Source: Candidatus Binataceae bacterium (GTDB lineage: Bacteria; Desulfobacterota; Binatia; Binatales; Binataceae). Taken from it: a stretch of DNA of 64,000 nt. A program made the translations under genes and the position numbers. The stretch is taken from contig JADMIL010000004.1 of assembly GCA_015478645.1 (NCBI GenBank), positions 34,555 through 98,554 on the forward strand, read 5' to 3'. Every line of letters begins with the position of its first letter. Position 1 is the first letter of the stretch. Positions 1 through 17,762 of the stretch are shown here, in pieces. The notes beneath the pieces are model-generated. The model was not told where the DNA came from. It did not search any database and saw only the letters and a program-made list of their open reading frames with translations.

Positions 1-226
1 CGCGCGGGCGGCGATGCGATCGATTAAGACTGACGCGGGATTACCCTTTGGCGCCCTGACCAGTCCGCGCGATGTATACCTGGTCGTTCCGCCCGCGCTG
101 GAAGAAGTCGCAGCGCAATTGCTGCATTCGGATTTCATGGCGGGCGCGGGAGCGAGCGCGAGCGTGCCGACCGGGAATATCTGGAAAAATACCGCGACAC
201 TGGTCGTGAGCGAATACCTGTCGTAA
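1..226 (+). CDS. Mu-like major capsid protein gpT, C-terminal fragment (5' end outside window)
   Basis: MRSIKTDAG..LVVPPALEEVAAQLL..N.WK....LVVSEYLS parallels the C-terminus of Mu gpT as recalled (MRSFEGDGG..IVVPVGLEKAAEQLL..NEMKGKLQLVVADYL). Confidence 0.85.
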   Translation, partial: ARAAMRSIKTDAGLPFGALTSPRDVYLVVPPALEEVAAQLLHSDFMAGAGASASVPTGNIWKNTATLVVSEYLS

Positions 227-343
227 AAGAAGGACGCGCGTTCGCTCCCGCGTGCGGCACCTATCAGCCGCATCTCCGCGCTCGCTGCGCGCAAGCCGAC
301 CCAACAGGGCGGAACCAACAAGTCACAAGCGGCACCGAAGACG

Positions 344-802
344 ATGGCATACGCATTACCAAGCGACATGGCGGCGCGATACCCAAATCGGGATCTTGTT
401 CAACTGACTAATGAGGATCCCACACAGACAACGGTCAACGCCACGGTGCTGCAGCAGGCGCTCGATGATGCGTCGGCAGAGCTCGACGGGTATCTCGAAA
501 GCCGCTTCTCACTGCCACTGAACGACCCGCCGGTGGTGCTGAACCGGCTGGCCTGCGATATCGCGATGTACCGGCTACAGGCGCTGCGTCCGCTGCACGA
601 CCTGGCGGACGCGCGCAAGCGATACGAAGACGCGGTCGAGCTGCTGGTGCGGGTGACGCGCGGCGAAGTGACACTGGGCCTCGCCGCGGACAATCTGGAA
701 CCGCCGTTGGCGCAGAGCGCGGTGGTGACACAAGCGGGAGGCGATCCGAGCGGCGTGCTACCGGCGCGGGTTTTCGATCGGGGTACGCTGAAGAGCTTCT
801 GA
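344..802 (+). CDS. Mu gp36-like head-tail adaptor (DUF1320)
   Basis: MAYA...DM..RY....LVQLT, DGYL..R..LPL, RLACDIAMYRL, RYEDA..LL..V..G.V.LGL motifs. Confidence 0.88.
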   Translation: MAYALPSDMAARYPNRDLVQLTNEDPTQTTVNATVLQQALDDASAELDGYLESRFSLPLNDPPVVLNRLACDIAMYRLQALRPLHDLADARKRYEDAVELLVRVTRGEVTLGLAADNLEPPLAQSAVVTQAGGDPSGVLPARVFDRGTLKSF

Positions 803-848
803 CTATTATAGACGTGCCAGCATCCTGGTCGGGTAAAGGAGAATAGTA

Positions 849-1121
849 ATGCGTGTGACTTTCATCTGCGTGCGAGCCGAACGGCGCAACGAATGGCATC
901 CTGGTTATCTGGCGCATTCCGCGCGGCTGGTGCCGGTAGTCGATGGAGCACCGCCAGCGCGCGAATACTTTGTCGAGCCGCCAGTGGGCGTGATCGAACT
1001 GAGCGGCCTCGCGGCCGAACATTTCACGGTTGGGCGGACGTACGTGGTGCACTTCGACGAAGTAGGGCTTGACGAAAGCCGCGCTTCCCGCCGCAATGGT
1101 CCGCCGGCCGGGCGCGAGTAG
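849..1121 (+). CDS. Hypothetical protein (90 aa)
   Basis: Good RBS (AAGGAG) upstream; fills the gap between gp36 and gp37. Confidence 0.6.
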   Translation: MRVTFICVRAERRNEWHPGYLAHSARLVPVVDGAPPAREYFVEPPVGVIELSGLAAEHFTVGRTYVVHFDEVGLDESRASRRNGPPAGRE

Positions 1122-1130
1122 GAGGTATCG

Positions 1131-1970
1131 ATGGGCGCCGTAATCCTGGACAGTCCGTGGGCAGGGCAGAGCTACTCGCCGCCGACACCACTGGATATAC
1201 GGACGATCGAGTCCGCGATCGTCGCCCAGTTGATCGCGCAGATCAATGGCATCGAAGTCGCGCATTTTCCGGACAAGCCGGAGTCATACCGAATGATGCA
1301 TCGCGTCGGAGCGGCGCTTGTCCGCTACGACGGGGCGGAATACGGCCGGCTGATCGATACTGCGGCGGTGGTGCAGGAGCGCACTTTGAGATTCGAGATC
1401 ACGCTGATGATGCGCGACCTGGGCTGGAACTATGGCGGCGCGCCGGACGGTCCGAGTCCGGGAGCTTACGCTATGATCGAGAACGTGCGCGCAGCGCTGA
1501 CCGGGTACCGCGTTCCGGGATGCGCCAAGTGTTATCCGGTGCGCGAACGCTTCGTCGAACGGGATAAGCAAGGCGGCGCGTGGATATACGCGATCGTCTT
1601 CGCACTAAAGACGGCGGCGGTTGAAGCGTCGAGCACGGATAATTATCCGACCCTGGTGCTGGCGACTACTCAGGAACAGGGGGGCGTGACGAGCGTGAGC
1701 GTTAACGCGGCGGTCTATACGTTCAACTCGTCGGGAGCGATCCAACTGCCCAACGGGAATGTAACGGCCGTTGCATTGAGCAATATCACAAGCGGCGCAC
1801 CATACGCGTTGGGAACCGACTACACAGTCGACTCCGTCAACGGGGTACTCGACCAAGTTGCTAGCGGAACGCTTCCGCCGGGCGCAACGATCAACGTCGC
1901 ATACAGCTACGCCGAGATCGTCACAGCAAGCGCCGGTGGCAGGAGTGCTCCGTTGGCACCGCGAAACTGA
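1131..1970 (+). CDS. Mu gp37-like tail terminator/neck protein with an extra C-terminal beta-sandwich domain
   Basis: IE.AIV..L....VAHFPDKP..Y...HRVGAALVRY.G..Y, Q.R.L.FEIT...RDL, R.ALTGY, W.Y...F; RBS GGAGG; C-terminal GTDY..D..NG domain. Confidence 0.8.
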   Translation: MGAVILDSPWAGQSYSPPTPLDIRTIESAIVAQLIAQINGIEVAHFPDKPESYRMMHRVGAALVRYDGAEYGRLIDTAAVVQERTLRFEITLMMRDLGWNYGGAPDGPSPGAYAMIENVRAALTGYRVPGCAKCYPVRERFVERDKQGGAWIYAIVFALKTAAVEASSTDNYPTLVLATTQEQGGVTSVSVNAAVYTFNSSGAIQLPNGNVTAVALSNITSGAPYALGTDYTVDSVNGVLDQVASGTLPPGATINVAYSYAEIVTASAGGRSAPLAPRN

Positions 1971-2184
1971 TTACTCGGACGAAGGTGTGACGCAGTATCG
2001 TCGACGCTGACTGCACTCAGCGCACCGCACAATAGACAGAAGCTTGGCGGGAAGACGCTCATAACCGCACAGTTTAACACTCGAGTAAATGAGTAAAGTC
2101 ACCGCTAGCACCGGCGTCAACATCTATATGCATCGTCACGCGCAACAGACCACCGTTCCGCGGTGCGAATCAGAGGTAAACTAA

Positions 2185-3930
2185 ATGCCCGCATCGTTTT
2201 TGCATGGTGTCGAAGTAATCGAGGTCACGAGCGGTCCGGCACCGATAACCGTGGTCAAGTCGTCAGTCGTCGGTCTGATAGGCAGCGCGCCCCTGTGGTC
2301 TTCGAACGCCCCACCGTCGGTGAACTCGCCAACGCTGGTGAGTTCCGCGCAGCAGGGAGCAGTCTATGGTCCGGCGGTGCAGGGCTACACGATTCCATAT
2401 GCGCTCAACGCTATCCTTGCACAGGGAGCCGGCCAGGTGATCGTGGTCAACGTATTTGACCCGACGAGCCACTTCAGCGATATCGTCGCGTCACAAACGT
2501 TCAGCGCGGCCGGCGCGATCAATTTGGGCCACATGGGCATCTCCAATCTTTCGGTGTTGCCGACTAACACGACCGCGGTGAGCGCGGAATCACATACCTT
2601 TGGCGGAACGCCGGCAACGATCGAGCTTGCGCACGGAAATGTGCAAGCTTCGTCGATGGTAGTGACGAGTAATCCGGCGGGAACGACATACGTCCAGGGT
2701 ACTGACTATTTGGCTGACGCGCGTACGGGACTTATTACCCGGCTTTCGAGCGGAGCGCTAACGGCAACACAAGCCGTCCTCGTCGGCTACAGTTACTATT
2801 CCGGAACGCCGTATAGTGCCAGCACCGCGTACGCCGCCGACCTGGTCAACGGTGTAGTAACGTTGGTGGCGGGAGGAGCGATCGCGGCCGGAGCAACGGT
2901 AATCGCGTCATTCAGCTACGCGGACCCGAGCAAGGTTCAAGACTCGGACATTATCGGCACGGTCGGCTCCGGTGGCTATACGGGTTTGCAGGCGCTGCTG
3001 ACGACGTACGGCACAATGGGCTTTTTCGCGAAACTGTTGATCGCGCCAGGATACTCACAGAACGGGGACGTCGCGACGGCAATGCTGGCGACGGCGGCCA
3101 GTATACGGGCGATGGCACTGCTCGACGCTCCGCCGGGAACCGCGGCGGCGGCGGTGATCGCAAATCGGGGCGTCGCGGGCAATGCGTTCGACACGAGTTC
3201 GACCCGGGCGATCCTGTGTTATCCGCAGGAGACGTTTTACGATATTGGATTGGTGCCCACCGGAGTGACCTTGAACGGAACGACGCCGGTTCGGCTGGCC
3301 GCAAATCAAAACTCGATAGCACCCTATTCTCAGTGGGTAGCGGGGGCGATGGCCGCAAAGGACCTGTCCAAGGGCTATTGGTGGTCGCCATCGAACACCA
3401 TGGTGAATGGGATTCTTGGTCCGGATGTTACGCTCTATGCATCGATCCTCGATGCGTCATCGGATGTGAACAATCTCAATGCGGCGGGAATTGTGACAGC
3501 CTTCAACGCTTTCGGCACCGGCCTCAGAGTGTGGGGCAACCGGACGGCCGGTTTTCCGGACGTGACGACACCCGATAACTTTATCAGCGTGCGCCGGACC
3601 ATGGATGTAATTGAGGAATCGGTGGAGCTGTCGATGCTGCAGTTTATCGACCAGCCTATTAGCAATGCACTGATTACCGCGATCCTGGCAAGCGCAAACG
3701 CGTTTATACGAACGCTTATTCAACGCGGCGCACTGGTCGCGGGATCGGCCAGCTACAATCCAGCGGAGAATCCGGCCAACCAGATTACAGCAGGCCAGTT
3801 GGTATTCGATATTGATGTGATGCCGCCGCCGCCGGCAGAGCGACTGACCTTCAACGTCTATATCGACTCGACTTTGCTCAGCCAGCTAGGAACAGCGAGT
3901 GCGTTGACCAGTACGACGCTCAACGCATAA
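2185..3930 (+). CDS. Contractile tail sheath protein (P2 FI-like)
   Basis: FLHGVEVIEV..G..PI..V.S.V.GLIG, LIAPG, GYWWSPSN, G.RVWGNRT, FISVRRT.D.IEES, PPPPAERLTF. Confidence 0.95.
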   Translation: MPASFLHGVEVIEVTSGPAPITVVKSSVVGLIGSAPLWSSNAPPSVNSPTLVSSAQQGAVYGPAVQGYTIPYALNAILAQGAGQVIVVNVFDPTSHFSDIVASQTFSAAGAINLGHMGISNLSVLPTNTTAVSAESHTFGGTPATIELAHGNVQASSMVVTSNPAGTTYVQGTDYLADARTGLITRLSSGALTATQAVLVGYSYYSGTPYSASTAYAADLVNGVVTLVAGGAIAAGATVIASFSYADPSKVQDSDIIGTVGSGGYTGLQALLTTYGTMGFFAKLLIAPGYSQNGDVATAMLATAASIRAMALLDAPPGTAAAAVIANRGVAGNAFDTSSTRAILCYPQETFYDIGLVPTGVTLNGTTPVRLAANQNSIAPYSQWVAGAMAAKDLSKGYWWSPSNTMVNGILGPDVTLYASILDASSDVNNLNAAGIVTAFNAFGTGLRVWGNRTAGFPDVTTPDNFISVRRTMDVIEESVELSMLQFIDQPISNALITAILASANAFIRTLIQRGALVAGSASYNPAENPANQITAGQLVFDIDVMPPPPAERLTFNVYIDSTLLSQLGTASALTSTTLNA

Positions 3931-3996: not shown

Positions 3997-4515
3997 ATGG
4001 ACATTTCGGTAAATCGTATAACGAATGCGAATATTTATATGGACGGCGCGGGTTTGCTTGGAAGGGCTGAAGAAGTCGAGGTGGCACAGCCGCGCCATCG
4101 CATGGTCGACCATAAGGGCCTGGGGATGGCAGGGACGGCCGAATTCTGGGCGGGGGTCGACAAGCTCGAAGCCAAGATCAAGTGGGCATCGCTGTATCCG
4201 GAAGCGTTAACGGCGGCGGCCAGTCCCTTTACGTCGCATTCGTTCCAGGTTCGCGGCAGCCTCGAGCAATACACCAGCCAGGGAAGGAGCGCCGAGCTGC
4301 CAGTGGTCTATTTGATGACGGCGGTATTCAAGGATGCGGGCGCCTTTCGCTTCCGGCAGCACGAGAACGTGGATTCCACGTCCAGCCTTACGGTCTACCA
4401 TTCGGAGCTCTACGTAGCGGGAACGCAAATCCATTTGTACGATGTACTCGCCAATATATACGTGGTGAACGGTGTCGATCAGCTAGCCGTATTTCGTGCG
4501 AACCTCGGCGGATGA
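3997..4515 (+). CDS. Major tail tube protein (P2 FII-like)
   Basis: NANIY.DG...LG.AEEV, GLGM.G......G.DKLEA, ...YDV..NIY.VNGVD.LA..R.NLG; follows the sheath. Confidence 0.92.
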   Translation: MDISVNRITNANIYMDGAGLLGRAEEVEVAQPRHRMVDHKGLGMAGTAEFWAGVDKLEAKIKWASLYPEALTAAASPFTSHSFQVRGSLEQYTSQGRSAELPVVYLMTAVFKDAGAFRFRQHENVDSTSSLTVYHSELYVAGTQIHLYDVLANIYVVNGVDQLAVFRANLGG

Positions 4516-4676: not shown

Positions 4677-4738
4677 GCGCATTTCGGCCCCGACGCCGGC
4701 GGGGCGCCGCAAGCAAAAAAGAAGAGGAGTTGCATTCG

Positions 4739-5068
4739 ATGGCCGATGAAGTGAAGGCGATTATGCTTCCATCTGGGAGAGCTGCGACAATACGCAAGGG
4801 AAAAGGGCGCGACCTGATGCGCGCGCATCGCGCAGTCGCAGGAAATCAGGAGCCTATGGCCGTCTCGTTCGCACTAGTGGCCGAATTGGCCCAAGTGGAA
4901 GGAAGACCGATCGTTTACGAGGACGTGTTGGCGATGGACCTGGAGGACGTGCTTGTGCTCGAAGCTGAAGTAATGGGGGCGGCTGAGGGCGAACCAAATT
5001 TTACCGTGAGGCCGGAGGACCGCACCGAAGAATCGAACTACCTGGAGCGGCCGCGGTCGTCAGATTAA
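4739..5068 (+). CDS. Tail assembly chaperone (gpE/gp41-like), 0-frame product
   Basis: Position after the tube; LPSG..ATIR...GRDL..A, ..EDV..MDLED motif; RBS GAGGAG 9 nt before ATG 4739. Confidence 0.85.
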   Translation: MADEVKAIMLPSGRAATIRKGKGRDLMRAHRAVAGNQEPMAVSFALVAELAQVEGRPIVYEDVLAMDLEDVLVLEAEVMGAAEGEPNFTVRPEDRTEESNYLERPRSSD

Positions 5069-5184
5069 TCGGATTTGGTTTCGCACTGACGGAGCTGGAT
5101 TCCATGACGCTGGAGGAACTCGAGTACTGGGCGCGAACCACCGCCGAATACTTACTGGCTAACGAACACGGGCACCAAGGATGA
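4996..5184 (+). CDS. -1 frameshift extension of the tail chaperone (gpE+E'-like)
   Basis: In-frame slippery heptamer A AAT TTT at 4996-5002; the -1 frame is open to TGA 5182-5184 and encodes ..GFALTELDSMTLEELEYWARTT.., a gpE'-like motif. Confidence 0.8.
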   Translation, partial: KFYREAGGPHRRIELPGAAAVVRLIGFGFALTELDSMTLEELEYWARTTAEYLLANEHGHQG

Positions 5185-5224
5185 TGAGCGGACGACGATC
5201 ATGAATGCGCGAGGAAGCGAGGGT

Positions 5225-5521
5225 ATGAGTAAGCGGTTATACGCAGGCAACTTGCATTTTGACTTAACCGACACGGCGCTCCAGCAGGTATTTGGGCACG
5301 TCGGCGGAGTTGAGAAGGCAGAGGTAATTAAGGACCGGGCGACCGGCCTGTCGCGCGGTTTCGGCTTCGTCGAAATGATGACGATCGAAGATGGCGAAGC
5401 GGCGATCGCGGAACTGGATGGTGCCGACGTAATGGGGCGGGTATTACGGGTGGCGCCGGCCAAGCCGCACGAGCCCCCGCGGCGTGGGCGATCAGCCGCG
5501 TACGAAACAGGAATAGAATGA
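5225..5521 (+). CDS. RNA-binding protein, single RRM domain
   Basis: RNP2 LYAGNL, RNP1 RGFGFVEM, AI.ELDG....GR.LRV..A; stop overlaps next start (ATGA). Confidence 0.93.
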   Translation: MSKRLYAGNLHFDLTDTALQQVFGHVGGVEKAEVIKDRATGLSRGFGFVEMMTIEDGEAAIAELDGADVMGRVLRVAPAKPHEPPRRGRSAAYETGIE

Positions 5522-6792
5522 AGTCGCGGGCCGACATGGTGCATGCGTCACGCTTTGCAGATCACGTCGTCGTGCGGTCGGCGACGATAGCGGGGCGTAT
5601 CGGCGGACTAGCGGAGTCCACTCGCAAATTGTCGCTTGAATCGACCGAGACCGCACACGGGATCCTCGCGGCTGCGCGCAGGAGCCGCAGGGTGCCAATC
5701 GGCCGGTCGAGTAATCCCTCGAGCAGCGATAGTTTGATCAGCCGCGTCGAGGACATCCCGACTTGGCGCCAGGCGCCAGCGCGCATTCGCGATCTTGAAT
5801 CGAATGTAAATAGCCTTATCAGTGCCGCGGGACTAGCCACAGTCACCGAACGAGTCGGTTCCGTGATAGGCGATATCGTGACTCATACGACCCGAGCGTC
5901 GCTGGCGATGCCGTCATGGTTATCGATTAATAAGATGGAAAGAGCGTCTCGCAGGTCATTGAATGCCCAGTCGACCGAACCTCAACAACGCAATCGATTA
6001 AACAATACTTTCGTCGACACCCGCAGCAGCTCCGCCGCAATCCATACTAACTACCTCGGCTTGAGCGCACCTGACGTTATGTCGCCCGCAGGACCCGCAC
6101 GGGATCAGCCCGCGGTGTATCCGTCGTCGTCAGGGTTCGATCCGAAGCGTCCAAATGGATATAACGCTCCCCGCTGGGGCGAGATGGGCTTTATACCTCT
6201 GACGGCAGCGAATACCCAAGGAGTTGCGCGCCACCGCAGTTTTTCGACGCATCGGAATCGGCTTACTACCCTAGAAGCAGACGCCCGCAATAGAGGCCTT
6301 GTGCGCGCCGCGCAACGCTCTGCAAGCGACGCTTTCGACACTACCTACACGAGATCAAAGACGTCACCCGCAGCGAATGTCGAGAACGCTGCGCGTCACG
6401 CTGCGCGACTTGGCTCGGCTGTTTACGCAAAAGGCGGTGCGCCGCACGGAAATGGAGTCTCTTCAGACCGCGAATGGAGAAGCAATCGGCTGCGAAGGAA
6501 CCGCGTTGAGGCTTGGGACCTCGATAATCGGTTTGCACGAGATTACCGAAGGCCGAACGAATATTCGAGCGGCGGCGCGAATGACTATCTGAAGGGAAGA
6601 GAACGCAGCGCGTCGGGATACCGTGGCGAGAGCGTTCCGCTAATCGTGAACTACTCGCCCACGGTGACGCTGTTTGACGCCCCGCCTGGGGAGATGGAGC
6701 GACGGTTGGTTGAAGCAATCGGCCGCCATGGCAGCGACCTGGTGCGCGTGCTGAACCGAGAGATGGAAAAGCGGCGACGCGCGGGATTCTAG
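5518..6792 (+). CDS. Atypical short protein in the tape-measure position
   Basis: Between chaperone and gpU; C-terminus (IVNYSPTVTL..D.....L......L..VL..EME.RRR..F) resembles TMP C-termini; the rest is R/S/A-rich and low complexity. Confidence 0.6.
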   Translation: MKSRADMVHASRFADHVVVRSATIAGRIGGLAESTRKLSLESTETAHGILAAARRSRRVPIGRSSNPSSSDSLISRVEDIPTWRQAPARIRDLESNVNSLISAAGLATVTERVGSVIGDIVTHTTRASLAMPSWLSINKMERASRRSLNAQSTEPQQRNRLNNTFVDTRSSSAAIHTNYLGLSAPDVMSPAGPARDQPAVYPSSSGFDPKRPNGYNAPRWGEMGFIPLTAANTQGVARHRSFSTHRNRLTTLEADARNRGLVRAAQRSASDAFDTTYTRSKTSPAANVENAARHAARLGSAVYAKGGAPHGNGVSSDREWRSNRLRRNRVEAWDLDNRFARDYRRPNEYSSGGANDYLKGRERSASGYRGESVPLIVNYSPTVTLFDAPPGEMERRLVEAIGRHGSDLVRVLNREMEKRRRAGF

Positions 6793-6861: not shown

Positions 6862-7515
6862 ATGATGTTCGCGGTACTCGGCGAAATAGTCTTTGAAGTT
6901 CTAAGCTCACCCGAAAAGCTGGAATACACGCGCGACTGGGATTACGCGGAACTTCGTGTGATCGAGGATCGTCCGCGGCTTCAGTGGATAGCGGATAACC
7001 TGGCGTTGATCACGATCGATTTGCGCTTTCACGCCAGCTTTACCGTGCCCGAACTACAACTGGCCGCACTGATTGCGGCGGGTGACGATCACATTGCACG
7101 CCCGCTGGTGTTCGGAAACGGAATTCATCGCGGTTACTTTGTCGTGACTTCACTTCGAACGATTGCGACGCAGATGACGGCGGCCGGCGACCTTGCGGGA
7201 ATTACCGTGCGGACGACGCTTAAGGAATGGGCACTGAGTATTGAAATAGATCCGGGGGCGCCGCCCATCGCTCTGTTCCCCCTGCTTGGCGTGGTAGCGG
7301 CTCCGGCGGGAACTTCGACCGCATTGGTGTCATACCCCGGAGCAGGTGGAGTCGCTGAGACGCTCAGCGCATTGATCCCGGTTTACGCATCACCGGCAAT
7401 TCCCGCTCCAGGAGTCTCACCGATCCTCGACAACCCGGCCGCGACCGGCGCGGGATCGCCGCATCTGGTAGCCAATGATGTACCGCCGGGCACAATAGTG
7501 CGGGCGCCAAGATGA
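6862..7515 (+). CDS. P2 gpU-like tail tube initiator with Pro/Ala-rich extension
   Basis: MFA.LG.I.F, YAE...I..RPRLQW....L..I.I...FH..F..P, PLVFGNG...G.FV. Confidence 0.85.
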   Translation: MMFAVLGEIVFEVLSSPEKLEYTRDWDYAELRVIEDRPRLQWIADNLALITIDLRFHASFTVPELQLAALIAAGDDHIARPLVFGNGIHRGYFVVTSLRTIATQMTAAGDLAGITVRTTLKEWALSIEIDPGAPPIALFPLLGVVAAPAGTSTALVSYPGAGGVAETLSALIPVYASPAIPAPGVSPILDNPAATGAGSPHLVANDVPPGTIVRAPR

Positions 7516-7585: not shown

Positions 7586-7813
7586 ATGGTCCAAGCACAA
7601 TTCCTGACACACGTAACAATCCGGGGCGAGCGCTGGGATTCGCTTGCCTGGAAATACTACGGCGACGCCACCCTGTTTTCACCGATCGTGATGGCTAATC
7701 CGCAAATCGCGGTCGAACCGGTCTTCGAGGCAGGCCTGGTGATTGGTGTTCCGATATTACAGGTGAGCCAGGCGACCACCAGCGACCTGCCTCCGTGGAA
7801 ACGAACTTCATGA
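7586..7813 (+). CDS. Tail protein X (LysM-like)
   Basis: T..GERWD.LAWKYYGD......I..ANP.......F.AG..I.VP....LPPWK. Confidence 0.9.
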   Translation: MVQAQFLTHVTIRGERWDSLAWKYYGDATLFSPIVMANPQIAVEPVFEAGLVIGVPILQVSQATTSDLPPWKRTS

Positions 7814-8109
7814 TGAAGCGGCTGCGGAACTTGTGCGTGCGGTTTTTTCCAACGCGGCCGTTATGCGCGAAATGCGTGTCCGGACGCATGTCGCATCCGG
7901 TGTATTGTAAGGGCGAAGCGTGTGCTCATCGTCGGCAGAGAACCGTGTATTCATTACACGAGCATTTATACCTTCAATGCAGTAGATGTGGATACGTAGT
8001 CTGGTACCCGTGCGCTGATCATCGAGACATTGATCGGCATAAACGCAAGCGGTGTGCCGCTTCGCCGCTACTGCTAATAATCCGGCAGCGCTGTAAGGAT
8101 GCCCACTAG
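7810..8109 (+). CDS. Small Cys/His-rich putative zinc-binding protein
   Basis: ATGA overlap with the gpX stop; stop abuts gpD ATG; CxxC, CxxxxC, HxH, CxxC, C. Confidence 0.55.
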   Translation: MMKRLRNLCVRFFPTRPLCAKCVSGRMSHPVYCKGEACAHRRQRTVYSLHEHLYLQCSRCGYVVWYPCADHRDIDRHKRKRCAASPLLLIIRQRCKDAH

Positions 8110-9292: not shown

Positions 9293-9820
9293 GTGTTTCG
9301 AGTTGGCATAGTAAAGAGTCTGGATGCGACGAATGCCCGGGTGCGGGTGGTGTTTCCCGATCGCGATCAGATGCAGAGCTGGTGGCTCCCGGTAGTTTTT
9401 GCGAAGACGCAAAACGATAAAGAGTACTGGCTGCCGGATGTGGGCGAGCAAGTGGTCTGTGTAATGGATGAATACGACGAAGACGGCGCTGTGCTCGGAG
9501 CGATTTATTCGAGTGTGGATCGGCCGCCGGTGGCAAGCGCCGACAAGTTGCACTGGTCGGCAAAAGACGGGGCGGTATTCGAATACGATCGGGCGGCTCA
9601 CGCGTTCGCAGTGAGTATTCCCACAGGCGGAACGATAACAATAAGCGCGAACGGCGCGAATATCGCGATCGACGGCTCGGGCGACGTGTTAATCGCGGCC
9701 GCCGGAGAGATCACTCTCGCCGGCGGGGGGCCCGCTGTTGCACGCGTCGGAGATATAACGACTTGTCCCGCGGGTTCGGGACAGATAGTCAGTGGCAGCG
9801 CAAAGGTAAATGCCGGATGA
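9293..9820 (+). CDS. Baseplate central spike (gpV-like) with a C-terminal PAAR-like motif
   Basis: R.GIV..D....RVRV.FPD......S.WLPV, YWLPDVGEQV.C..D, G.VLGAIYS, DG...EYDR; ends ARVGD...C....G.I.SGS..V.AG. Confidence 0.9.
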   Translation: MFRVGIVKSLDATNARVRVVFPDRDQMQSWWLPVVFAKTQNDKEYWLPDVGEQVVCVMDEYDEDGAVLGAIYSSVDRPPVASADKLHWSAKDGAVFEYDRAAHAFAVSIPTGGTITISANGANIAIDGSGDVLIAAAGEITLAGGGPAVARVGDITTCPAGSGQIVSGSAKVNAG

Positions 9821-9925: not shown

Positions 9926-10369
9926 ATGAGTGTCGGCGCAATCACCCTGGCGGACATCACGTCTGCCGACTGGTCGTTGGCCCTTGATCAATCCGGAATG
10001 CCGGGTACAGGGCTGGGCAACGTGGTCCAAGGTGTGGCGGACGTTAACCAATGTATCCGAATCATTCTGACGACTCCGCGCGGCAGCGACCCGCTGCGGC
10101 CGACGTTTGGAGCGGACATCTGGCAATACGTAGACTATCCAGTCAACTCGGCGATACCCGCGATTGTACGCGAGGTAACCCAGGCGATAGCACTCTGGGA
10201 ACCGCGGGTCACACTGCTGTCGGTTAGAGCAACGCCAGCGCAGGATGATACCGCGCAGTCGGGTGCGCATCTGGATATTGCGATCACCTGGCAGCTCAAA
10301 TTGAGCACCAAGAACGGAAAAATAATGACCACGCCAAACAGTACGACGGTGACTATACCGACCGCTTGA
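9926..10369 (+). CDS. Baseplate wedge/sheath initiator gpW/gp25-like
   Basis: DV.QCI.IIL.TP.GSDPLRP.FG.D...Y.D.P, AI..WEPRV. Confidence 0.92.
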   Translation: MSVGAITLADITSADWSLALDQSGMPGTGLGNVVQGVADVNQCIRIILTTPRGSDPLRPTFGADIWQYVDYPVNSAIPAIVREVTQAIALWEPRVTLLSVRATPAQDDTAQSGAHLDIAITWQLKLSTKNGKIMTTPNSTTVTIPTA

Positions 10370-10432: not shown

Positions 10433-11602
10433 ATGGCTGGTGGTATTCCGCTGCTGCCGCCGCCGGTGTTCGTCGACGACGCCGACGGCCTGGACCCCAA
10501 CCTGATCCTCGCCGACATGGTGTCGGCCTTTCAGACCGCCGCAGGCCGTACATTACAGCCTGCACAGGTCGAGCGATTGCTGATCAATCTGTATGCGTAT
10601 CGTGAATCGCTGATACGCAACGCAATTCAATACGCGGGGCAGCAGAATCTGCTGGCCTATGCCGCATTCCCGATGCTCGACTACCTCGGCCAGCTACTGA
10701 GTATTATCCGGCTGGGCGCACAGGGAGCCACGACGACGCTCCAGTTTACATTGGCCAACCCGCTCAGTATCGCCTATGTGATTGCGGCCGGCACACAGGT
10801 CGGGACCATTGACGGTCAATTTGTTTTCGCCACAATCGAGAGCCTTACGATCCCGGCCGGCTCAATCTCAGGTTCCGTGCAGGCCACCAGCACCACGCCG
10901 GGGACGGGCGGTAATGGCTATCTGGCCGGGCAGGTGAACGTCCAGATTAGCCCGAGTGTATTGATCTCCGCGGTGACCAACTCCGACACCAGCGCGGGCG
11001 GCGCGTCGCCTGAAACCGATGAGCACTTGCGTGCCCGGATCCAGGCGGCGCCCAATCAGTTCAGCACGGCGGGTCCGGAAGGCGCCTACCGTTTTTTTAC
11101 GCTTAGCGCCGACCCGTCGATTATTGACGCGCAGGTCGTGACGCCGGCGCCGGGACAGGTGGTGGTTTACGTACTGACCGGTCCGATCACGATCCAGCCG
11201 GCGCCGTCGCCGAATCCGGCGGCGATCGCGAGTTCCGGGCTGCTGGCGAAAGTGGCCATTGCACTCAGCGGCGACAGCGTGCGGCCATTGACTGACACGG
11301 TGAGTGTAATGGCGGTGACCGAGACTGACTATCAAATCTCCGGCACGATCACCATCTACTCCGACGCCGATCCGGCGGCCACGATGGCGGCGGCGAACGC
11401 CGCTGCCCAAAGCTATGCGATCGCGTTGGCCTCGCGTATCCAGCGCGACATCGTGCCCAGCCAGATTATCGAGGCGCTGTCAGTTACAGGCGTTTATGAG
11501 GTGGTGCTGACTTCGCCAAGCTACACTCAACTGCAACCCGGGCAATGGGCTAATTGCATCGCGGTGACGCTCAGCCAGGCAACCAGCTCGCAATTGAGTT
11601 GA
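10433..11602 (+). CDS. Baseplate J-like protein
   Basis: GRTL.PAQVERLLI...AYRE, ETDE.LR.RI..AP..FS.AGP.GAY.F, VRPLTD.V.V. Confidence 0.93.
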   Translation: MAGGIPLLPPPVFVDDADGLDPNLILADMVSAFQTAAGRTLQPAQVERLLINLYAYRESLIRNAIQYAGQQNLLAYAAFPMLDYLGQLLSIIRLGAQGATTTLQFTLANPLSIAYVIAAGTQVGTIDGQFVFATIESLTIPAGSISGSVQATSTTPGTGGNGYLAGQVNVQISPSVLISAVTNSDTSAGGASPETDEHLRARIQAAPNQFSTAGPEGAYRFFTLSADPSIIDAQVVTPAPGQVVVYVLTGPITIQPAPSPNPAAIASSGLLAKVAIALSGDSVRPLTDTVSVMAVTETDYQISGTITIYSDADPAATMAAANAAAQSYAIALASRIQRDIVPSQIIEALSVTGVYEVVLTSPSYTQLQPGQWANCIAVTLSQATSSQLS

Positions 11603-11725: not shown

Positions 11726-12562
11726 ATGGCGCAACTGACTATCCAACCTTCGATCAACGATATGCGCAGCAACACGCTGCTCGATCTTATTGAGCGGATG
11801 GATGCGCTCGACCTGACGCCAATTCTAGTCTATCGGCTGAACTCCACTCCGGATAGCGCATTGCTGCTGCTGGCGTGGCAGTTCGACATGCTTGGACCGC
11901 AATGGCAATTGGGCGCGCAGTTGACGGAGTCGGTCGACGCGCTAACCGCGATCGATCCGCTGATTGACATCGACACACTTAATTCGATCAATAGCATCCT
12001 CGGTCCGTCGGATTACGATTCGCTGCGAGCGCTGCTCAAGGTGGCGATTCCGTTGCATCGTACGCGCGGTACGCCGTATGCGATCAAGACGGCGCTGGCG
12101 TCGCTCGGTTGGGGAAGCGTTACGCTGGAGGAGGGTCAGTCGTCGTGGGGCGGTACGCAGTATCCGAGCGACCAGGGGTGGGCGGTGTTCCGCGCGCTGA
12201 TCAATCTCGCCAGCGGGCAGAGCGTTGACAGCGGCGCCGCGACGCGGGCGATCGCCACAATCAATTTTTTCAAACCGGTACGCGCGTGGCTGGACTCGAT
12301 ATGGTTTATCGGGGCGCCGATCGCTGACGGCGCGCCGGCGCCAGCCGATTTTGTTCTGTCAATTTTTATGCAGGGCGATCCGGTGCCGGAACCGGGAGAT
12401 ATCATCAACGCGCCGGGCTGGCCACTTGCGGATCTGAAGACTATCGCACCCCTTTACAACGATCACTTTACGCATGTCGGAATTACTTACGGCGCTAATC
12501 AGCCAGCGGTTGCGGACTCTGGTGTAATCGTGAACGGCGCCGCGATCGCCGCGCGCGCGTAA
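11726..12562 (+). CDS. Tail protein I (P2 gpI-like baseplate wedge)
   Basis: L..LAWQF, R.L.K.AI.LHR..GTP.AIK.AL..LG, WA.FR, KP.R..L. Confidence 0.88.
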   Translation: MAQLTIQPSINDMRSNTLLDLIERMDALDLTPILVYRLNSTPDSALLLLAWQFDMLGPQWQLGAQLTESVDALTAIDPLIDIDTLNSINSILGPSDYDSLRALLKVAIPLHRTRGTPYAIKTALASLGWGSVTLEEGQSSWGGTQYPSDQGWAVFRALINLASGQSVDSGAATRAIATINFFKPVRAWLDSIWFIGAPIADGAPAPADFVLSIFMQGDPVPEPGDIINAPGWPLADLKTIAPLYNDHFTHVGITYGANQPAVADSGVIVNGAAIAARA

Positions 12563-12599
12563 CGACGGAGCGAACCGTCAAAGCCAACGAGAGGGACCA

Positions 12600-13244
12600 A
12601 TGCGACCATCAGGGATTGTGACGCTATACAAGGGCGGGCGCCTCGTCTGGACGGGGCACAACCTTTATGTGAACGCGGGGCTGCCGCCGCTGGCTAATCT
12701 GATCGCGGGCGTGACCACGGGACAGTACGTTGCCGCGATGGGCTTCGGTTCCGGTGCGACCGCGCCGGCGGCGACCGATACAGGTCTGACCGCCTCGCCG
12801 ACGTACTATAATGCGATCGGATCGCACAGCTTTCCTTCGTCGGGAAGTGTGCAATTCAATTACTCACTGCTGGCGACCGATTACGGCGCAGCGGGCCTGA
12901 CAATTCAGGAACTCGGGCTCTTTGCCAATGCCAGCGCGCTGGCGTTGCCCGCGGCTATCGGGACGGCCAATCCCGCGTGGAACGCTGCGACTGCGTACGT
13001 CGTCGGCAACCTGGTGACCGATAGCAACGGCAATCTCCAGCGCTGCACGACCCTTGGGACCAGCGGCGGCAGCGCCCCGACGTGGTCAAGTATCGTCGGC
13101 GGGAGCACCTCGGATGGCTCCGCGGCATGGACACTGGTGGCGCTGCATACCGCGCCGGGACCGATTCTGGCGCACGTCGCGGTGCCGGCCTTCGCATATA
13201 CCGGAACGGGAAACTATTCAGGGACATGGACGCTTACTTTCTAA
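12600..13244 (+). CDS. Tail collar/fibre-attachment protein with an inserted CBM5/12-like module
   Basis: NL.VN.G...LA.L..G, G.G.G..AP...DT.L, I.ELGLF; insert W.A.TAY.VG..V....G....C...GTSG...P.W......DG...W. Confidence 0.7.
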   Translation: MRPSGIVTLYKGGRLVWTGHNLYVNAGLPPLANLIAGVTTGQYVAAMGFGSGATAPAATDTGLTASPTYYNAIGSHSFPSSGSVQFNYSLLATDYGAAGLTIQELGLFANASALALPAAIGTANPAWNAATAYVVGNLVTDSNGNLQRCTTLGTSGGSAPTWSSIVGGSTSDGSAAWTLVALHTAPGPILAHVAVPAFAYTGTGNYSGTWTLTF

Positions 13245-13351: not shown

Positions 13352-13924
13352 ATGGCGACATTGATCGATAGTCCCGAATTCAGCGCAAACGAGATTTACC
13401 AGATCCAACAGACCGATCCGGTCGAAGGGGCGGCCACTGGAGCGAGCTTCAATGGCGCCGGAGTCAGCAACCAGCCGCATCAGCAACTCGCCAACCGCAC
13501 CGCGCTGCTCAAACAGCGGCAGGATACGAATATCGCGAATATCGGTGTGCTGCAGGACTTCATGGCTGGGTTCATCGGTTCATTACAGACTAACGGCTAC
13601 CTGCAGATACCGATTGTGGACGTCCTGCGAGGGCCGATTACAGCGATAATTCAGTGGGGCTATTACGCATTGCCGCAGGTAGCCATTGCGTTAGACACCG
13701 AGTACTCAGTGACCTGGCCGCTGCGGTTTCCAAACACAATCCTGATCCCGCCGCTGGCGACAAATGTGTATTTCCAGACCAGCGGCCGAAATACCGCGGC
13801 GTCGGTGGTGACTTATAGCGAGCGCGGCGCGACCTTCGTGCTGGACGTACCCAACAGCAGTTACGGATCGTTCGCAGGCAACGAGAAATCCAATGGATTT
13901 TCGTGGCTTGCGATCGGTTTCTAA
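13352..13924 (+). CDS. Short tail-fibre protein (fibre N-terminal anchor plus gp53-like domain)
   Basis: IYQI...DPVEG....G.SN....QLANRT..LK; NGY..., IIQWG, V.WP..FPN, ..W.AIGF end. Confidence 0.78.
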   Translation: MATLIDSPEFSANEIYQIQQTDPVEGAATGASFNGAGVSNQPHQQLANRTALLKQRQDTNIANIGVLQDFMAGFIGSLQTNGYLQIPIVDVLRGPITAIIQWGYYALPQVAIALDTEYSVTWPLRFPNTILIPPLATNVYFQTSGRNTAASVVTYSERGATFVLDVPNSSYGSFAGNEKSNGFSWLAIGF

Positions 13925-14012: not shown

Positions 14013-17000
14013 ATGATGAGATTTCCATCGATGATACGAACTATACGAAGCGCGGGGGCGGGGCGGAAGCGGCTTGCGACCCTGATTTTTGCGGGCTTGA
14101 TTACGGCCGCCGCAGTCGCAATCGCGCAGGCGCAGTACCGGCCGATTCCGAACTACATTGGAATCGGCGCCGGGCAGGAATTCCGCAACGACATCAATAA
14201 TCATCTTTCCGGCGTTACACCGATAGCGCCGCGGATAGTGAGTATTCCGTTCGCGCAATTGCCAGCGGAGCAGGACGGCCAGGAGTATTGGGTGCCCAAT
14301 GCCACGCAGGCTAATCCTTGCACCGCCGGCGGATCAGGGGCGCTCGCGGTCGGGATACGGGGCCAGTGGAATTGCCTGTCCGGCGCGTCGGGCACGGCGC
14401 TCGGCGGCTTTCCGCTGACGGCGAACGTCAGTGCGGCGAGCCATAGTATCCAGAACTTGGCGGTGAATACGGCGACCGGTGATGCGCTCTCGCAGGGACA
14501 GTCGCACCTCAATGAGCTGGCACCGGCGCAGAACGTCTACAGCATGGGCAACAACAGGCTGCAATGGGTGCGCGGGGGCGCGCAGGCTCTCGACGCATTG
14601 AGCTATGGACAATCGGGCGCGCAACTCAACGGGCTGGATCTCAATAACAATCAGTTGGCTAATCTTTCGGCGGCGTCGGCCAGCGGACAGGCCTTGGCTT
14701 ACGCGCAGAATGGCGCGCAATTGACGACGAATCAGGCGGCGGGGGCGCTGGTCTCGTCGAGCCAGAACAACGCGAACGCCACGTCGGTGGCGATCAATGC
14801 ACCGGCGGGGATCGTCGCCGGGAATGCGCTGGTGGCCAATATCTTCTGGGTCTCGCCGACTGGCACGTTCACGCCGCCGGCCGGATGGACGCAGATTCGC
14901 GCGGATGCGACCAGTGTGAGCTATGGCTTGACGGCTGGGGTGTTCTGCAAGGTCGCGACGGGCAGCGAGCCAGCGAATTACACGTTCGGCTTTTCGGTCG
15001 CGCAGAACGTGGTCGGATCGATCAGCCAGATCAGCGGGATCACTTGTGCGACTGACGGAAGTTCCGTGAGTGCGGGCGGCGCGAATAGTATTACCGCGCC
15101 GGCGTTCGCCACGACGCATAGCAGCGACTACGTGGTTGCGCAGGGGTCGTCGTACAACCCGGCTTCTTTTACCGCTTCGATCGGCGGTCGGCTGATTTCC
15201 GACGGGAACGCCAACGGCGATCTGTTGGTCACCGGACGTATCAATCCGGGCGTAAACGTCCCGGCGGTTGTCTATTCGGGGACGTTGGCGAACGTCTCGC
15301 TGGCCTCGCAAGTCGCCTTTGTCACTGCGACGACGATTCAATCGCTCCCGGTGCTGAGCGGGCAGATCGGCGCGTCGATTCAATCGCTGACCGCAAGCAA
15401 TAGCCAGGTGCTCAACGTGCAGGCGGCGCCGTACAATGCGCAGGCCGACGGCAACACCGACGACGGTCCAGCGATTCAGCAGGCGATTTACGACGCCGAA
15501 AGAGCGGTGCCGCCAACGTTTCCTAATCCGAATCTCTATCCGGGAGGCTTCGGGGCCGTCTATCTGCCACGTTCGGCGACGGGCAAATGCTACGACATCG
15601 GCAAGCCGATCCGGGTGGCGTCGGGGGCGATCGAGATCAAGGGCGACGACGGCACGTGTATCCAGAAGCTGTATGCCGGGCCGACGATTATCAACGAAGG
15701 CTGGGGCATCGACTTTCTCCAGTACGGTCCGGCGCTGGTCGGGACGGGGCAATCGCTGAGCACGGTTGGCTATTTAAGCAGTAATACTAAAAACGGTTTC
15801 ATCGATCTTGCGCAGTTGCTCGACACGACGCAGATCAATCTTGCGACTCGCTTTGCCAGCGGCTTCGATATTGAGTTCTGGATGGAGCAGACGACTACGT
15901 TGGGGGGCAACGTTTTTCGCTCGAATCCGAATAATCCTGGCGGCGGCAACGGGATGGTTTCGATCACCGCGTCCGGCGGCGCCGGAAATCCGGTCGCGGC
16001 CAGCGTGAACACCACAGGCGGATTAGTCAGTCTGGCCGCGTGTCCTTCGCAGACCCAAAACACCGCCTACGACATGGCGCTCGATTGGGACGGCACGACC
16101 TACCGGCTGTTTCAGGGCGGCGTGCTGTGCTCGAGTGTGGCGTCGGCGAATGCGCCGGTGCTTGGGCCATTTGAATCGATGCAGCTACCGGCGCTCGGCG
16201 GTTTTGACTATTGGATGGCGGGGGGCAATATAAGTAGCCCGTTTCAGGGCTATCTCGACTCGATGAGATTTGAATCGGTCTCGGAGCATGTCGCGAACTA
16301 CACGCCGCCGACCGCGCGCTTTGCGGCCGACGGCAACACGGTGCTGCTGCTCAACTGGGATGCGTCGCTCGATGGAACGCAACTCGGCTATACGCAGAAC
16401 GCGGCGCCGGTCTATTTGCCGGTGTTGGGCGGCGGGCAAAATACGATCGGCACGTCGATGCATCTGCATAATCTGGAGCTTTGCGCCGACGATGGCCAAA
16501 TGGCGCATCGCGGTGACGGCCTGTTCTCGCAGTGGGCGGTCGGTTCGGAAATCGACCACGTCAGTTGCTCGAATGCGGTCTATGCGGGGCTGAACTTCTA
16601 CAACAATGACTTCGGCACGATTGAGCATAACAACACGGTGCTGAGCGGGATGCTCGGAATCCTCCACGGCGTCGCGTGGAATGGCGCGCGCGCCTACGAC
16701 GATGCGATGGATTCTCAGTCAATTGCGTGTGAGGAGACGGTTGGCGACGGCGGTGGCGGCTTCCACGATAGTCATCAGCTATGCACGAATCGCGGCACGC
16801 TGCGCTATTGCAAGATGTACATGGGGGAGGCGTTCACCGGGCAGGTGGACTTTGAGAATTGCGATCAGGAGGCGGGCGATAGCAACTTCGTCGCGTCGGA
16901 CCTGCTGCAAAACCCCCTGATTTCGCTGCAGTTCAATTCGCCCGATTTTGTCGGCGTCAGCGGCCATCCGTTTATCGAGCAGGACGGCGGCGGGATGGGA

Positions 17001-17762
17001 CCGACGCTGGTCGCGCCGCAATTCCAGGGTGGTGGGACGGCGATCATCAATTACGGGCAGACGCCGAGCGCTCCGGCGGTACTGATCAATCCGACACTGC
17101 CGGCCGGCGTGCCACTGTCGAACAACCTTTCCTTCGTCGAAGTGATTGGATCGAACTCGATTCTGAGCGCGCTGCAACTCCAATCGGTGCCGACCTTCAG
17201 CGCCGGACTGAACCATATCGCGGTCAATGCGATCGCCAATCCGGCGCCGGCGTCGATCGCCGTGGTCGGCGCGACCGGCAGCACCGGCTACGGACCGTAT
17301 TTCGTGGTCTGTCACGATATCAATGGCGGGGCGACGCTCCCGTCGAACTCGTCGAACACAGTGGCTAATGGGCCTGCGACGCTGAGCGGCAGTGACTATA
17401 TCCGAGTGACCTGGACGGGCCTGACCGGTTGCGCCTCGTGGGATGTTCTCAAGGGCAGCCTCACGACTTCAATCGCGACCGCGCTGCCGGCCGGCACGAC
17501 CTCGTACAACGATATCGGCGGATCGACCAGCGCGTACACGCCGCCCGTCCGCAACACTACTGGCGATATCAGTTATGGCTCTGTGCTGACCAGCGCCGGG
17601 ATGACCTATGCGAATCTGCCTTCTCCGACGGTCAACGGTGGGCGTTTCTATTGCAGCGATTGCGATCCGCCGGCGAATCCACCGGCCGCCTGTACGCATA
17701 CCGGGACCAAGACCGGCGCGTTCGCCGATGGCGTCAACGGCGTCTGGCTATGCGCACCGTGA
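14013..17762 (+). CDS. Large tail-spike/adhesin-like protein (neck repeats, pectate-lyase-like beta-helix, LamG-like insert) with a predicted signal peptide
   Basis: VLNV....Y.A.ADG.TDD..AIQ.AI beta-helix cap; FDIEFW..YRLFQGG..F.GYLD.MR LamG-like segment; N-terminal RKR-LATLIFAGLITAAAVAIAQA. Confidence 0.75.
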   Translation: MMRFPSMIRTIRSAGAGRKRLATLIFAGLITAAAVAIAQAQYRPIPNYIGIGAGQEFRNDINNHLSGVTPIAPRIVSIPFAQLPAEQDGQEYWVPNATQANPCTAGGSGALAVGIRGQWNCLSGASGTALGGFPLTANVSAASHSIQNLAVNTATGDALSQGQSHLNELAPAQNVYSMGNNRLQWVRGGAQALDALSYGQSGAQLNGLDLNNNQLANLSAASASGQALAYAQNGAQLTTNQAAGALVSSSQNNANATSVAINAPAGIVAGNALVANIFWVSPTGTFTPPAGWTQIRADATSVSYGLTAGVFCKVATGSEPANYTFGFSVAQNVVGSISQISGITCATDGSSVSAGGANSITAPAFATTHSSDYVVAQGSSYNPASFTASIGGRLISDGNANGDLLVTGRINPGVNVPAVVYSGTLANVSLASQVAFVTATTIQSLPVLSGQIGASIQSLTASNSQVLNVQAAPYNAQADGNTDDGPAIQQAIYDAERAVPPTFPNPNLYPGGFGAVYLPRSATGKCYDIGKPIRVASGAIEIKGDDGTCIQKLYAGPTIINEGWGIDFLQYGPALVGTGQSLSTVGYLSSNTKNGFIDLAQLLDTTQINLATRFASGFDIEFWMEQTTTLGGNVFRSNPNNPGGGNGMVSITASGGAGNPVAASVNTTGGLVSLAACPSQTQNTAYDMALDWDGTTYRLFQGGVLCSSVASANAPVLGPFESMQLPALGGFDYWMAGGNISSPFQGYLDSMRFESVSEHVANYTPPTARFAADGNTVLLLNWDASLDGTQLGYTQNAAPVYLPVLGGGQNTIGTSMHLHNLELCADDGQMAHRGDGLFSQWAVGSEIDHVSCSNAVYAGLNFYNNDFGTIEHNNTVLSGMLGILHGVAWNGARAYDDAMDSQSIACEETVGDGGGGFHDSHQLCTNRGTLRYCKMYMGEAFTGQVDFENCDQEAGDSNFVASDLLQNPLISLQFNSPDFVGVSGHPFIEQDGGGMGPTLVAPQFQGGGTAIINYGQTPSAPAVLINPTLPAGVPLSNNLSFVEVIGSNSILSALQLQSVPTFSAGLNHIAVNAIANPAPASIAVVGATGSTGYGPYFVVCHDINGGATLPSNSSNTVANGPATLSGSDYIRVTWTGLTGCASWDVLKGSLTTSIATALPAGTTSYNDIGGSTSAYTPPVRNTTGDISYGSVLTSAGMTYANLPSPTVNGGRFYCSDCDPPANPPAACTHTGTKTGAFADGVNGVWLCAP

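Follow-up and report, generated by a model that had tools for sequence, protein, structure and literature searches.

The DNA analyzed here, referred to throughout as the window, is a stretch of 64,000 nucleotides from the Candidatus Binataceae bacterium assembly GCA_015478645.1 (genome G000; 3.06 Mb in 98 contigs, 65% G+C, completeness of 91.9%) and corresponds to positions 34555-98554 of its source contig, C34. Window positions 1-17762 are the right two thirds of a phage-like gene cluster of about 30 kb (C34:~22.2-52.3 kb), in which genes for a Mu-type head and a contractile tail follow those for regulation, lysis, and packaging. We propose that this cluster is probably a domesticated, immobile, and chromosomally inherited particle system, derived from a Mu-like myophage and kept by purifying selection in the family Binataceae. 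Genomes compared are labelled G, contigs within a genome C, and loci or IMG/VR contigs L; family tallies refer to 164 Binataceae genomes, including seven flagged as unpublished.

Scans of the 20 plus-strand open reading frames (ORFs) in window 1-17762 against Pfam and PHROGs confirm the capsid, neck, and full contractile tail with intact frames that an earlier sequence-only reading of this DNA had listed (Table 1), and every ORF named in that reading is present and open. The 34 kb of contig upstream of the window hold host genes as far as C34:21718, namely an amidohydrolase, a porin-like barrel, a SnoaL-like protein, and an enoyl-CoA hydratase (ECH), with a G+C content at third codon positions (GC3) of up to 0.87; the cluster follows. 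Its left end is a leftward cI/LexA-type repressor gene (HTH_3 plus Peptidase_S24) and an AT-rich divergent promoter region, past which lie genes for a 125-aa DnaA-domain-IV-like (DnaA_C-like) protein and a 223-aa Mor-like activator. Downstream of the activator are a GH108 endolysin and small membrane proteins, including a spanin-like pair made up of a protein with an N-terminal membrane helix and an overlapping lipoprotein. These lysis genes are followed by Mu gp27, the large terminase, the Mu portal, a gpI protease whose start overlaps the portal stop in G000, an immunoglobulin (Ig)-bearing decoration-like protein, and the gpT capsid gene, complete at C34:33824-34780 (Pfam Mu-like_gpT, 1.7e-94). 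All of the Mu-type head genes gp27, Portal_Mu, gpI protease, gpT, gp36, and gp37 are present (Pfam E-values of 3e-31 to 3e-102), and by our own sum about 9.5% of the cluster is non-coding.

Gene content and missing mobility genes

No MuA, MuB, Mu F, integrase, transposase, or replication gene was found in or beside the cluster, including the upstream 34 kb, where repressor, terminase, portal, and lysis genes are present. The Mu DDE transposase family PF02914 has no match in G000, and the only rve match in that genome is an insertion sequence fragment at a contig end. Elsewhere, PF02914 occurs in 2 of 41 relatives and 9 of the 164 family genomes, always on a contig other than that of the capsid gene. 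Searches by tblastn with two Binataceae MuA proteins likewise returned nothing in any locus compared and nothing in G000. The distance from the repressor start to the Mor match is 371-2125 bp in 46 loci and therefore leaves no room for A plus B; the ORFs between repressor and lysis genes gave no AAA or Phage-MuB_C match. Phage_Mu_F was not found by Pfam after the G000 portal. Extra post-portal DNA in other loci was considered as a place for Mu F and rejected, as the ORFs there (L050 and G016) are host-type or without a match.

The nearest relatives outside the Binataceae band, the IMG/VR contigs L192, L195, L196, and L199, served as controls. All four carry MuA, and their portals are 61% (L192) or 51-53% (L195, L196, and L199) identical to that of the cluster. 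Pfam scans of L192 and L195 identified MuB in L195 (AAA_22, Phage-MuB_C); in both contigs, Phage_Mu_F lies between portal and protease. At its C-terminus, the Mu_F protein of L192 (L192:13192-14538) also weakly resembles an ADP-ribosyltransferase (Pfam ART at 1.5e-4, which is below cut-off). Free Mu-like myophages share with the cluster the order Mor, terminase, Mu portal, protease, gpT, gp36, sheath, tube, and chaperone; portals of cultured relatives (e.g., Alteromonadaceae phage B23 and Rhodovulum phage vB_RhkS_P1) are 39-43% identical to that of the cluster, and genomes of the nearest cultured and IMG/VR relatives measure 34-44 kb. Unlike these phages, the Binataceae cluster occupies a fixed chromosomal site and lacks MuA, MuB, and Mu_F, and because these three are missing it falls outside the class of Mu-like transposable prophages. 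It also carries an RRM gene that is found in none of the free relatives L192, L195, L196, and L199. By gene content, then, the cluster reads as a Mu-like myophage that lacks A, B, and F and has gained an RRM gene.

Chromosomal position, descent, and selection

The gene order around the cluster is common to G000, G005, and G006, with ECH, SnoaL, and amidohydrolase genes on the left and, on the right, genes for a 793-aa membrane protein (r793), glnA, and an acyl-CoA dehydrogenase; the right flank is also found in G008 and G010. At the chromosomal site of G000, two further genomes (G001 and G004) carry deletion remnants. The nearest relative, G003, was considered as an empty site and set aside, since its contig ends inside the left flank and the right flank is unassembled. 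Between genera the left flank differs: a carboxyl transferase and DoxX in 14 loci, AlgH and an HTH protein in four to five, a methyltransferase in three, and ECH in the genus of G000. In every left flank, a host metabolic gene directly adjoins the repressor.

Quick IQ-TREE phylogenies of RpoB and the portal (SH-aLRT of 82-100 on the branches compared) agree on the pairs (G005,G006), (G008,G010), and (G009,G012). Both trees join (G005,G006) to (G008,G010), set G000 apart, and place G014 and G015 outside the genus. The portal tree matches the RpoB tree, a pattern that fits vertical descent. Among the best 80 of 215 portal relatives, taken from genome contigs, nearly all are labelled as Binataceae, Binatus, or "delta proteobacterium" bins.

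The distribution is not patchy: the capsid gene is present in 120 of the 164 Binataceae genomes, in 76 of 95 high-quality ones, in 22 of 30 genera, and in 47/47 genomes of one genus, nearly always as one full-length copy. Capsid identity to G000 falls into narrow genus bands, 87-91% among its congeners and 77-81% in the genus of 47 species. The capsid gene occurs twice at full length in G043, at 87% and 78% identity to G000; this bin has 4% contamination and may be mixed.

Relative to a 91%-identical IMG/VR contig, 20 of 20 genes compared are open, the synonymous substitution rate (dS) is 0.09-0.34 and thus unsaturated, and the ratio of nonsynonymous to synonymous rates (dN/dS) is 0.02-0.32, with values of 0.02 for the capsid, 0.04 for GH108, 0.07 for the sheath, and 0.09 for the portal. 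Species-to-species comparisons put dS near or above 1, with most structural genes at a dN/dS of 0.02-0.2. Five cells with dN > 1.8 were excluded from the between-species comparison and treated as misaligned segments (repS24 and protease in both G008-G010 and G006-G008, and u150 in G005-G006). Terminase, portal, and capsid are among the best-conserved genes (dN/dS of 0.02-0.13). On these ratios, the cluster is under purifying selection. The sequence-only reading had taken the locus for possibly a vertically inherited, domesticated, Mu-derived particle rather than an ordinary prophage, and had looked to a constant position, host-like gene trees, and low dN/dS as its signs; the absence of mobility genes upstream, locus, trees, spread, and selection all support it.

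The head module is frequently interrupted. In a survey of 60 loci with enough DNA downstream of the portal, the protease lies directly behind the portal in 14, as in G000; inserted genes of 3-8 kb separate the two in 13, and 33 have no protease within at least 9.6 kb. The portal-protease junction is a hot spot for host-type inserts (L050:11223-19611; L019:15500-18100); those in L050 encode NHL-repeat proteins and, in antisense, an ABC ATPase, and those in G016 a DUF1329 protein and an EamA transporter. Portal and capsid are 3.5 kb apart in G000, 13.5 kb in G176, 16.6 kb in G079, and 23.6 kb in G060, and they lie on different contigs in G174. In G063, which has one closed chromosome, the portal is at 2.71 Mb and the capsid at 3.96 Mb, 1.25 Mb apart and on opposite strands of a single 4.58-Mb contig. 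Judged from these layouts, no phage genome should be packageable as a unit from split clusters, whose halves are separated by 13-24 kb or 1.25 Mb; the relatives' whole genomes measure 34-44 kb.

Possible function and rival explanations

If the cluster operates as its gene content suggests, the cI/LexA-type repressor, transcribed away from the operon, would keep it silent, and inactivation of the repressor would allow the DnaA-domain-IV-like protein and the Mor-like activator to turn on the late genes. Terminase, portal, protease, and capsid would form DNA-filled Mu-type heads, and sheath, tube, chaperone (with its frameshift product), baseplate, and short fibre would form P2/Mu-type contractile tails, with GH108 endolysin and the spanin pair lysing the producer cell. 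Lacking any means of replication or excision, the cluster could fill such heads only from the chromosome. The sequence-only reading had called the particle host-regulated, a description that is not supported; the cluster has its own repressor and Mor-like activator.

The repressor of G000 lies at L002:5502-6113 (minus strand; C34:22501-23112), with its true start at the Met of MQQFGS; the long GTG-started ORF is over-extended. The S24 nucleophile motif GDSM.P occurs in about 40 of 48 repressor orthologues and GDAM in a few others. The repressors of G000 and the 91%-identical IMG/VR contig read GDFM (GDFMSP), and because Phe replaces the nucleophile Ser, RecA-type self-cleavage has probably been lost in this lineage. 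In G000, a signal other than S24 self-cleavage would then be needed to inactivate the repressor. For the GTA (gene transfer agent) activator GafA, a DnaA-like DNA-binding part is described (PMC9638019); in some cases the activator is divided between two genes, one of them small and DnaA-like. The DnaA_C-like and Mor-like pair parallels this split arrangement by analogy, with no GafA-family match here. Homology of the pair to GafA/GafYZ was considered and rejected, as neither Pfam nor NCBIfam gave a match to any GafA family; the Mor-like protein matches no GafA-related Pfam family at E 0.01 and no PDB sequence below E 0.39. The DnaA_C-like gene is present in only 9 of 80 loci, and the 143-aa ORF in its place in L050 is unrelated.

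Among described systems, the closest in organization are GTAs and PBSX, both of which keep heads. GTAs (RcGTA type, BaGTA, and CcGTA) are, like the cluster, chromosomal, vertically inherited, non-self-multiplying, often multi-locus, and released by lysis; among the features by which GTAs are recognized, phage-like structural genes fixed in the chromosome, inherited vertically, and unaccompanied by self-propagation genes are found here. GTAs are further characterized by particles that cannot carry every gene required for their production, which the layout suggests for split clusters and does not suggest for the compact 30-kb copy of G000, and by random packaging of host DNA and its delivery to recipients, which the cluster may share. 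It also differs from them in its ancestor, which had a Mu head and contractile tail, in the phylum of its host, and in its own cI-type repressor. PBSX of Bacillus consists of a head and contractile tail, a repressor and late activator, and lysis genes at a locus fixed across related species, without replication or integration genes; PBSX particles also kill sensitive strains and carry short, random pieces of host DNA, properties that the predicted Binataceae particle might share. The cluster matches this layout (repressor, late activator, terminase, head, contractile tail, and lysis, with no replication or integration genes), but its structural genes are unrelated in sequence and its host is Gram-negative.

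The closest described co-option of a Mu-like phage is R-syringacin, in which only the tail is kept. R-syringacin of Pseudomonas syringae stems from the independent co-option of a phage with a Mu-like tail at a fixed locus, with loss of the replication genes and of all head and packaging genes (PMC4542187). The Binataceae cluster, unlike R-syringacin, retains head and packaging genes under strong purifying selection. R-type tailocins are defined by the lack of capsid, portal, and terminase and extracellular contractile injection systems (eCIS; Afp/PVC type) by the lack of a capsid together with an Afp15-type AAA+ ATPase and loaded effector genes; here, the head and packaging genes are present and conserved, and because of the head genes the cluster is neither a tailocin nor an eCIS. 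No AAA+ match of the kind expected for an Afp15-type ATPase was found among 44 ORFs scanned. The sequence-only reading was correct that retention of a capsid sets this particle apart from tailocins and eCIS; with PBSX and GTAs as precedents, the trait is not unique.

GTA-like delivery of host DNA is the function that we tentatively favor over PBSX-like killing, at somewhat less than even odds. A more specific proposal, which we regard as speculative, is that the cluster represents an independent origin of GTAs: a Mu-derived, contractile-tailed agent, multi-locus in many species and with a captured, RNA-binding RRM protein as a conserved component of its tail module, of which compact copies such as that of G000 would act as obligate lateral transducers of the glnA side through headful packaging from a fixed site.

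The main rival is a PBSX-like killing particle, in which the tail would kill competing Binataceae and the DNA-filled head would be a mere assembly requirement with no useful transfer. The regulatory layout, in which an S24 repressor is paired with a late activator beside lysis genes, is reminiscent of SOS-induced pyocins and PBSX. Distal genes have diverged quickly, as expected of genes for target specificity (within the genus, identity is 45-48% for the last ORF and 89-91% for the capsid), and variable, possibly surface-modifying membrane proteins stand beside that last ORF. However, known tailocins, including R-syringacin, dropped their head and packaging genes (PMC4542187), whereas terminase, portal, and capsid here are among the best-conserved genes, with the dN/dS of 0.02-0.13 given above. 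We consider this explanation possible but less likely than delivery of host DNA.

Several observations weigh against a domesticated particle system. All genomes compared are metagenome bins. In the closest species pair, dS of the head and tail genes is 1.1-2.0 versus 0.37-0.65 in the flanking host genes; weaker codon bias in the cluster (GC3 of 0.58-0.81 versus 0.79-0.89) may explain the excess, as could allele replacement through recombination. G+C and GC3 of the cluster are lower than those of the host. Losses are frequent in several lineages: G005 has no capsid gene and a split sheath gene; G085 lacks the stretch from tube to gpJ; G004 retains just the repressor, DnaA_C, and Mor beside ECH; and at least six family genomes have fragmented capsid matches. 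In G001, about 24 kb are deleted, and a broken repressor immediately adjoins the 214-aa ORF, with the fibre gene and the last ORF after it. This remnant (L249, G001:C14:84000-98000) keeps the full-length signal-peptide ORF and a membrane protein and has lost all regulators and all lysis, head, and tail genes. The RRM copy of G010 is degenerate, with its RNP motifs lost, and the tape-measure-position ORF is missing from G015 and G174 (L028 and L167), two genera that otherwise keep tail genes. Finally, the G000 copy is uninterrupted and, at a compact 30 kb, would fit a Mu-sized head.

Some of these observations would be explained if the cluster were an old defective prophage in slow decay, with no present function and conserved by common ancestry only. 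Such decay would account for the independent deletions and broken genes in G001, G004, G005, G010, and G085, the fragmented capsid matches, the foreign composition, and the loss of the repressor nucleophile in the lineage of G000. It is nevertheless improbable, given that about 25 genes remain open between species with dN/dS of 0.02-0.2 at dS near or above 1, that 20/20 genes are open with dN/dS of no more than 0.32 relative to the 91%-identical contig, that the overlapping-frame E' peptide is preserved, and that the capsid gene is present in all 47 species of one genus. A still-active temperate phage moving by an unrecognized mechanism is very improbable: the G000 copy retains complete sets of head, tail, packaging, and lysis genes and would fit into a Mu-sized head, and prediction tools have placed related contigs in IMG/VR, but the site is constant across species, the cluster tree matches the host tree, there is no recombinase or transposase in or beside the cluster, and host genes split the head module, with the halves in G063 lying 1.25 Mb apart.

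To our knowledge, few independent domestications of whole phage particles have been recognized, namely the RcGTA type, BaGTA, VSH-1, Dd1, VTA, and PBSX. If correct, a domesticated particle system in Binataceae would add a case from a different phage lineage, the transposable Mu-like myophages, and one in which stages of domestication are visible side by side as compact, host-gene-interrupted, and chromosome-split clusters and deletion remnants. Such domestications shape thinking on gene exchange and phage-host co-option. Judging by titles and abstracts, the papers on Binataceae and Binatota in the library searched describe no phage element; at the level of title and abstract, none of the papers listed there on gene transfer agents describes a Mu-derived GTA either. 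We know of no cultured member of the phylum of Binataceae (Binatota), and the cluster offers a concrete target for particle-fraction metagenomics in the soils and peat where Binataceae are common.

RRM gene, tape-measure position, and right boundary

Table 1. Features of the cluster and its right boundary in window coordinates, with supporting matches (E-values) where present.
Feature	Position	Strand	Support or remark
Mu gpT-type major capsid gene, 3' end	1..226	+	Pfam Mu-like_gpT 2.9e-8 on fragment
Mu gp36-type head-tail adaptor	344..802	+	Pfam Phage_Mu_Gp36 7.7e-33
90-aa ORF, no family match (Pfam, PHROGs)	849..1121	+	conserved within genus
Mu gp37-type tail terminator or neck protein, C-terminal Ig-like domain	1131..1970	+	Pfam Gp37 9.3e-34; PHROG 807
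Contractile tail sheath	2185..3930	+	Pfam Phage_sheath_1 and 1C; PHROG 23 6.8e-91
Tail tube, P2 FII type	3997..4515	+	Pfam Phage_tube 2.2e-37
Tail assembly chaperone (ORF to 5068) with E'-like overlapping-frame extension to ~5185	4730..5185	+	PHROG 21320 3.3e-20; Pfam Phage_TAC_7 weak
RRM protein, 106 aa	5201..5521	+	Pfam RRM_1 2.4e-18; NCBIfam Rbp_regulator 2.6e-24, below cut-off
424-aa Arg/Ala/Ser-rich ORF, tape-measure position	5518..6792	+	no family match (Pfam, PHROGs, NCBIfam)
P2 gpU-type tail protein	6862..7515	+	Pfam Phage_P2_GpU 9.8e-21
P2 gpX-type tail protein	7586..7813	+	Pfam Phage_tail_X 1.3e-11
104-aa Cys-rich ORF, poorly conserved, between gpX and gpD	7795..8109	+	no family match
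P2 gpD-type baseplate hub or late control protein	8110..9129	+	PHROG 52 3e-92; Pfam Phage_GPD below cut-off
gpV-type spike, OB domain and weak PAAR-like end	9293..9820	+	Pfam Phage_base_V 5.1e-7; PAAR 2.6e-4, below cut-off
gpW/gp25 baseplate wedge	9926..10369	+	Pfam GPW_gp25 1.3e-16
gpJ baseplate wedge	10433..11602	+	Pfam Baseplate_J 7.1e-49
P2 gpI-type baseplate protein	11726..12562	+	Pfam Tail_P2_I 2.7e-13
214-aa ORF, likely distal tail or fibre component	12600..13244	+	PHROG 5417 4.3e-12
190-aa short tail fibre-like protein	13352..13924	+	Pfam Gp53-like_C 2e-7; PHROG 4209 tail fibre 4.2e-14
1249-aa ORF, conserved Sec-type signal peptide, weak pectate-lyase-like middle	14013..17762	+	Pfam Pect-lyase below cut-off
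Right boundary spacer with REP-like hairpin	17763..17936
Two paralogous multi-pass membrane proteins, 484 and 385 aa, variable cargo	17937..20506	-

The coupling of an RRM gene into the tail operon, proposed in the sequence-only reading, is confirmed by the RRM_1 match and by a stop codon that overlaps the ATG of the next ORF, an arrangement for translational coupling. Eleven other genomes carry an orthologue in the corresponding place, after the chaperone and before the next tail gene, with RNP2 (LY.GNL) and RNP1 (RGFGFVEM) conserved and no Gly-rich tail; three pairs give a dN/dS of 0.06-0.10, and the pair that includes the degenerate G010 copy gives 0.28. Three host RRM paralogues in G000 are 40-49% identical and have Gly-rich tails. 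This pattern is consistent with one ancient acquisition of a host-type gene. Against 50,697 phage records the RRM protein gave three matches, none in a tail module, and no RRM protein linked to a prophage tape-measure region was found in the library searched; in these records and that search, a canonical RRM protein kept in a tail operon has no described counterpart.

Directly upstream, an overlapping-frame peptide of the chaperone, LIGFGF.LTEL..M.L.E..YWA, is conserved in 8/8 genomes examined, in keeping with a P2 E/E'-type frameshift product. Downstream, orthologues of the tape-measure-position ORF are 363-475 aa long and 19-25% identical, with conservation only in the last ~60 residues. An AlphaFold2 model of the 424-aa ORF built with eight orthologues has a predicted local distance difference test score (pLDDT) of 46.9 and 205 of 424 residues helical; the claim that this ORF is non-helical is therefore not established, the low-confidence model being about half helical. 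In G015 and G174, which lack the ORF, chaperone, RRM, and gpU are kept and gpU directly follows the RRM gene. In G015, moreover, gpD and gpV are 4.3 kb apart.

Among the smaller ORFs, that of 90 aa is 55-64% identical to its relatives (dN/dS of 0.18) and that of 214 aa 68-73% identical within the genus. The 104-aa Cys-rich ORF has a low GC3 (0.59) and is matched only in G008 and G010, at 37-47%.

The last ORF had been read as a terminal spike with a signal peptide. The signal peptide stands: in 5/5 orthologues aligned, a Sec-type AxA|Q site precedes a mature N-terminus that is strongly conserved; membership in the particle is uncertain. Because the 1249-aa ORF is retained in G001, whose particle genes are deleted, its product may be exported and act independently of the particle instead of serving as a tail spike. 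A protein atlas score of 0.84 to large viral Laminin_G_3/DUF1565 proteins is a lead only.

The cluster was also said to end directly against host genes; a REP-like hairpin and two membrane protein genes in fact precede the conserved flank. Pieces of the hairpin (31-38 bp) recur at 100% identity on C37, C97, C94, C39, and C1 and at 91-94% on C70, with many copies in G003. The two membrane proteins have 10 and 6 hydrophobic segments and common motifs, and neither has a Pfam or NCBIfam match; homologues adjoin the last ORF in G063 and G001. In G016, PMT_2 (GT-C) glycosyltransferase genes lie beside the cluster. The membrane proteins and GT-C genes beside the cluster may modify the cell surface.

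Four spacers within the operon lie exactly where the sequence-only reading had placed them, and its view of them as a repeated, non-phage feature is not upheld: they are unique in the G000 genome, dissimilar to each other and to the orthologous spacers of relatives, and those orthologous spacers range from 6 to 229 bp. A role as regulatory or anti-termination elements was rejected, as a consensus scan found no terminators and neither sequence nor length is conserved.

Finally, G000 harbors a second, partial Mu-like cluster outside the window (G000:C39:64500-74400; L153:6500-16400), in which protease, capsid, and tail genes were not found. It encodes Mor-like and gp27-like proteins, a 561-aa ORF, a large terminase (51%), a chaperone-like protein (54%), a Mu portal (63-65%), and a gp36 adaptor (65%). 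G010 has a second portal as well (60%).

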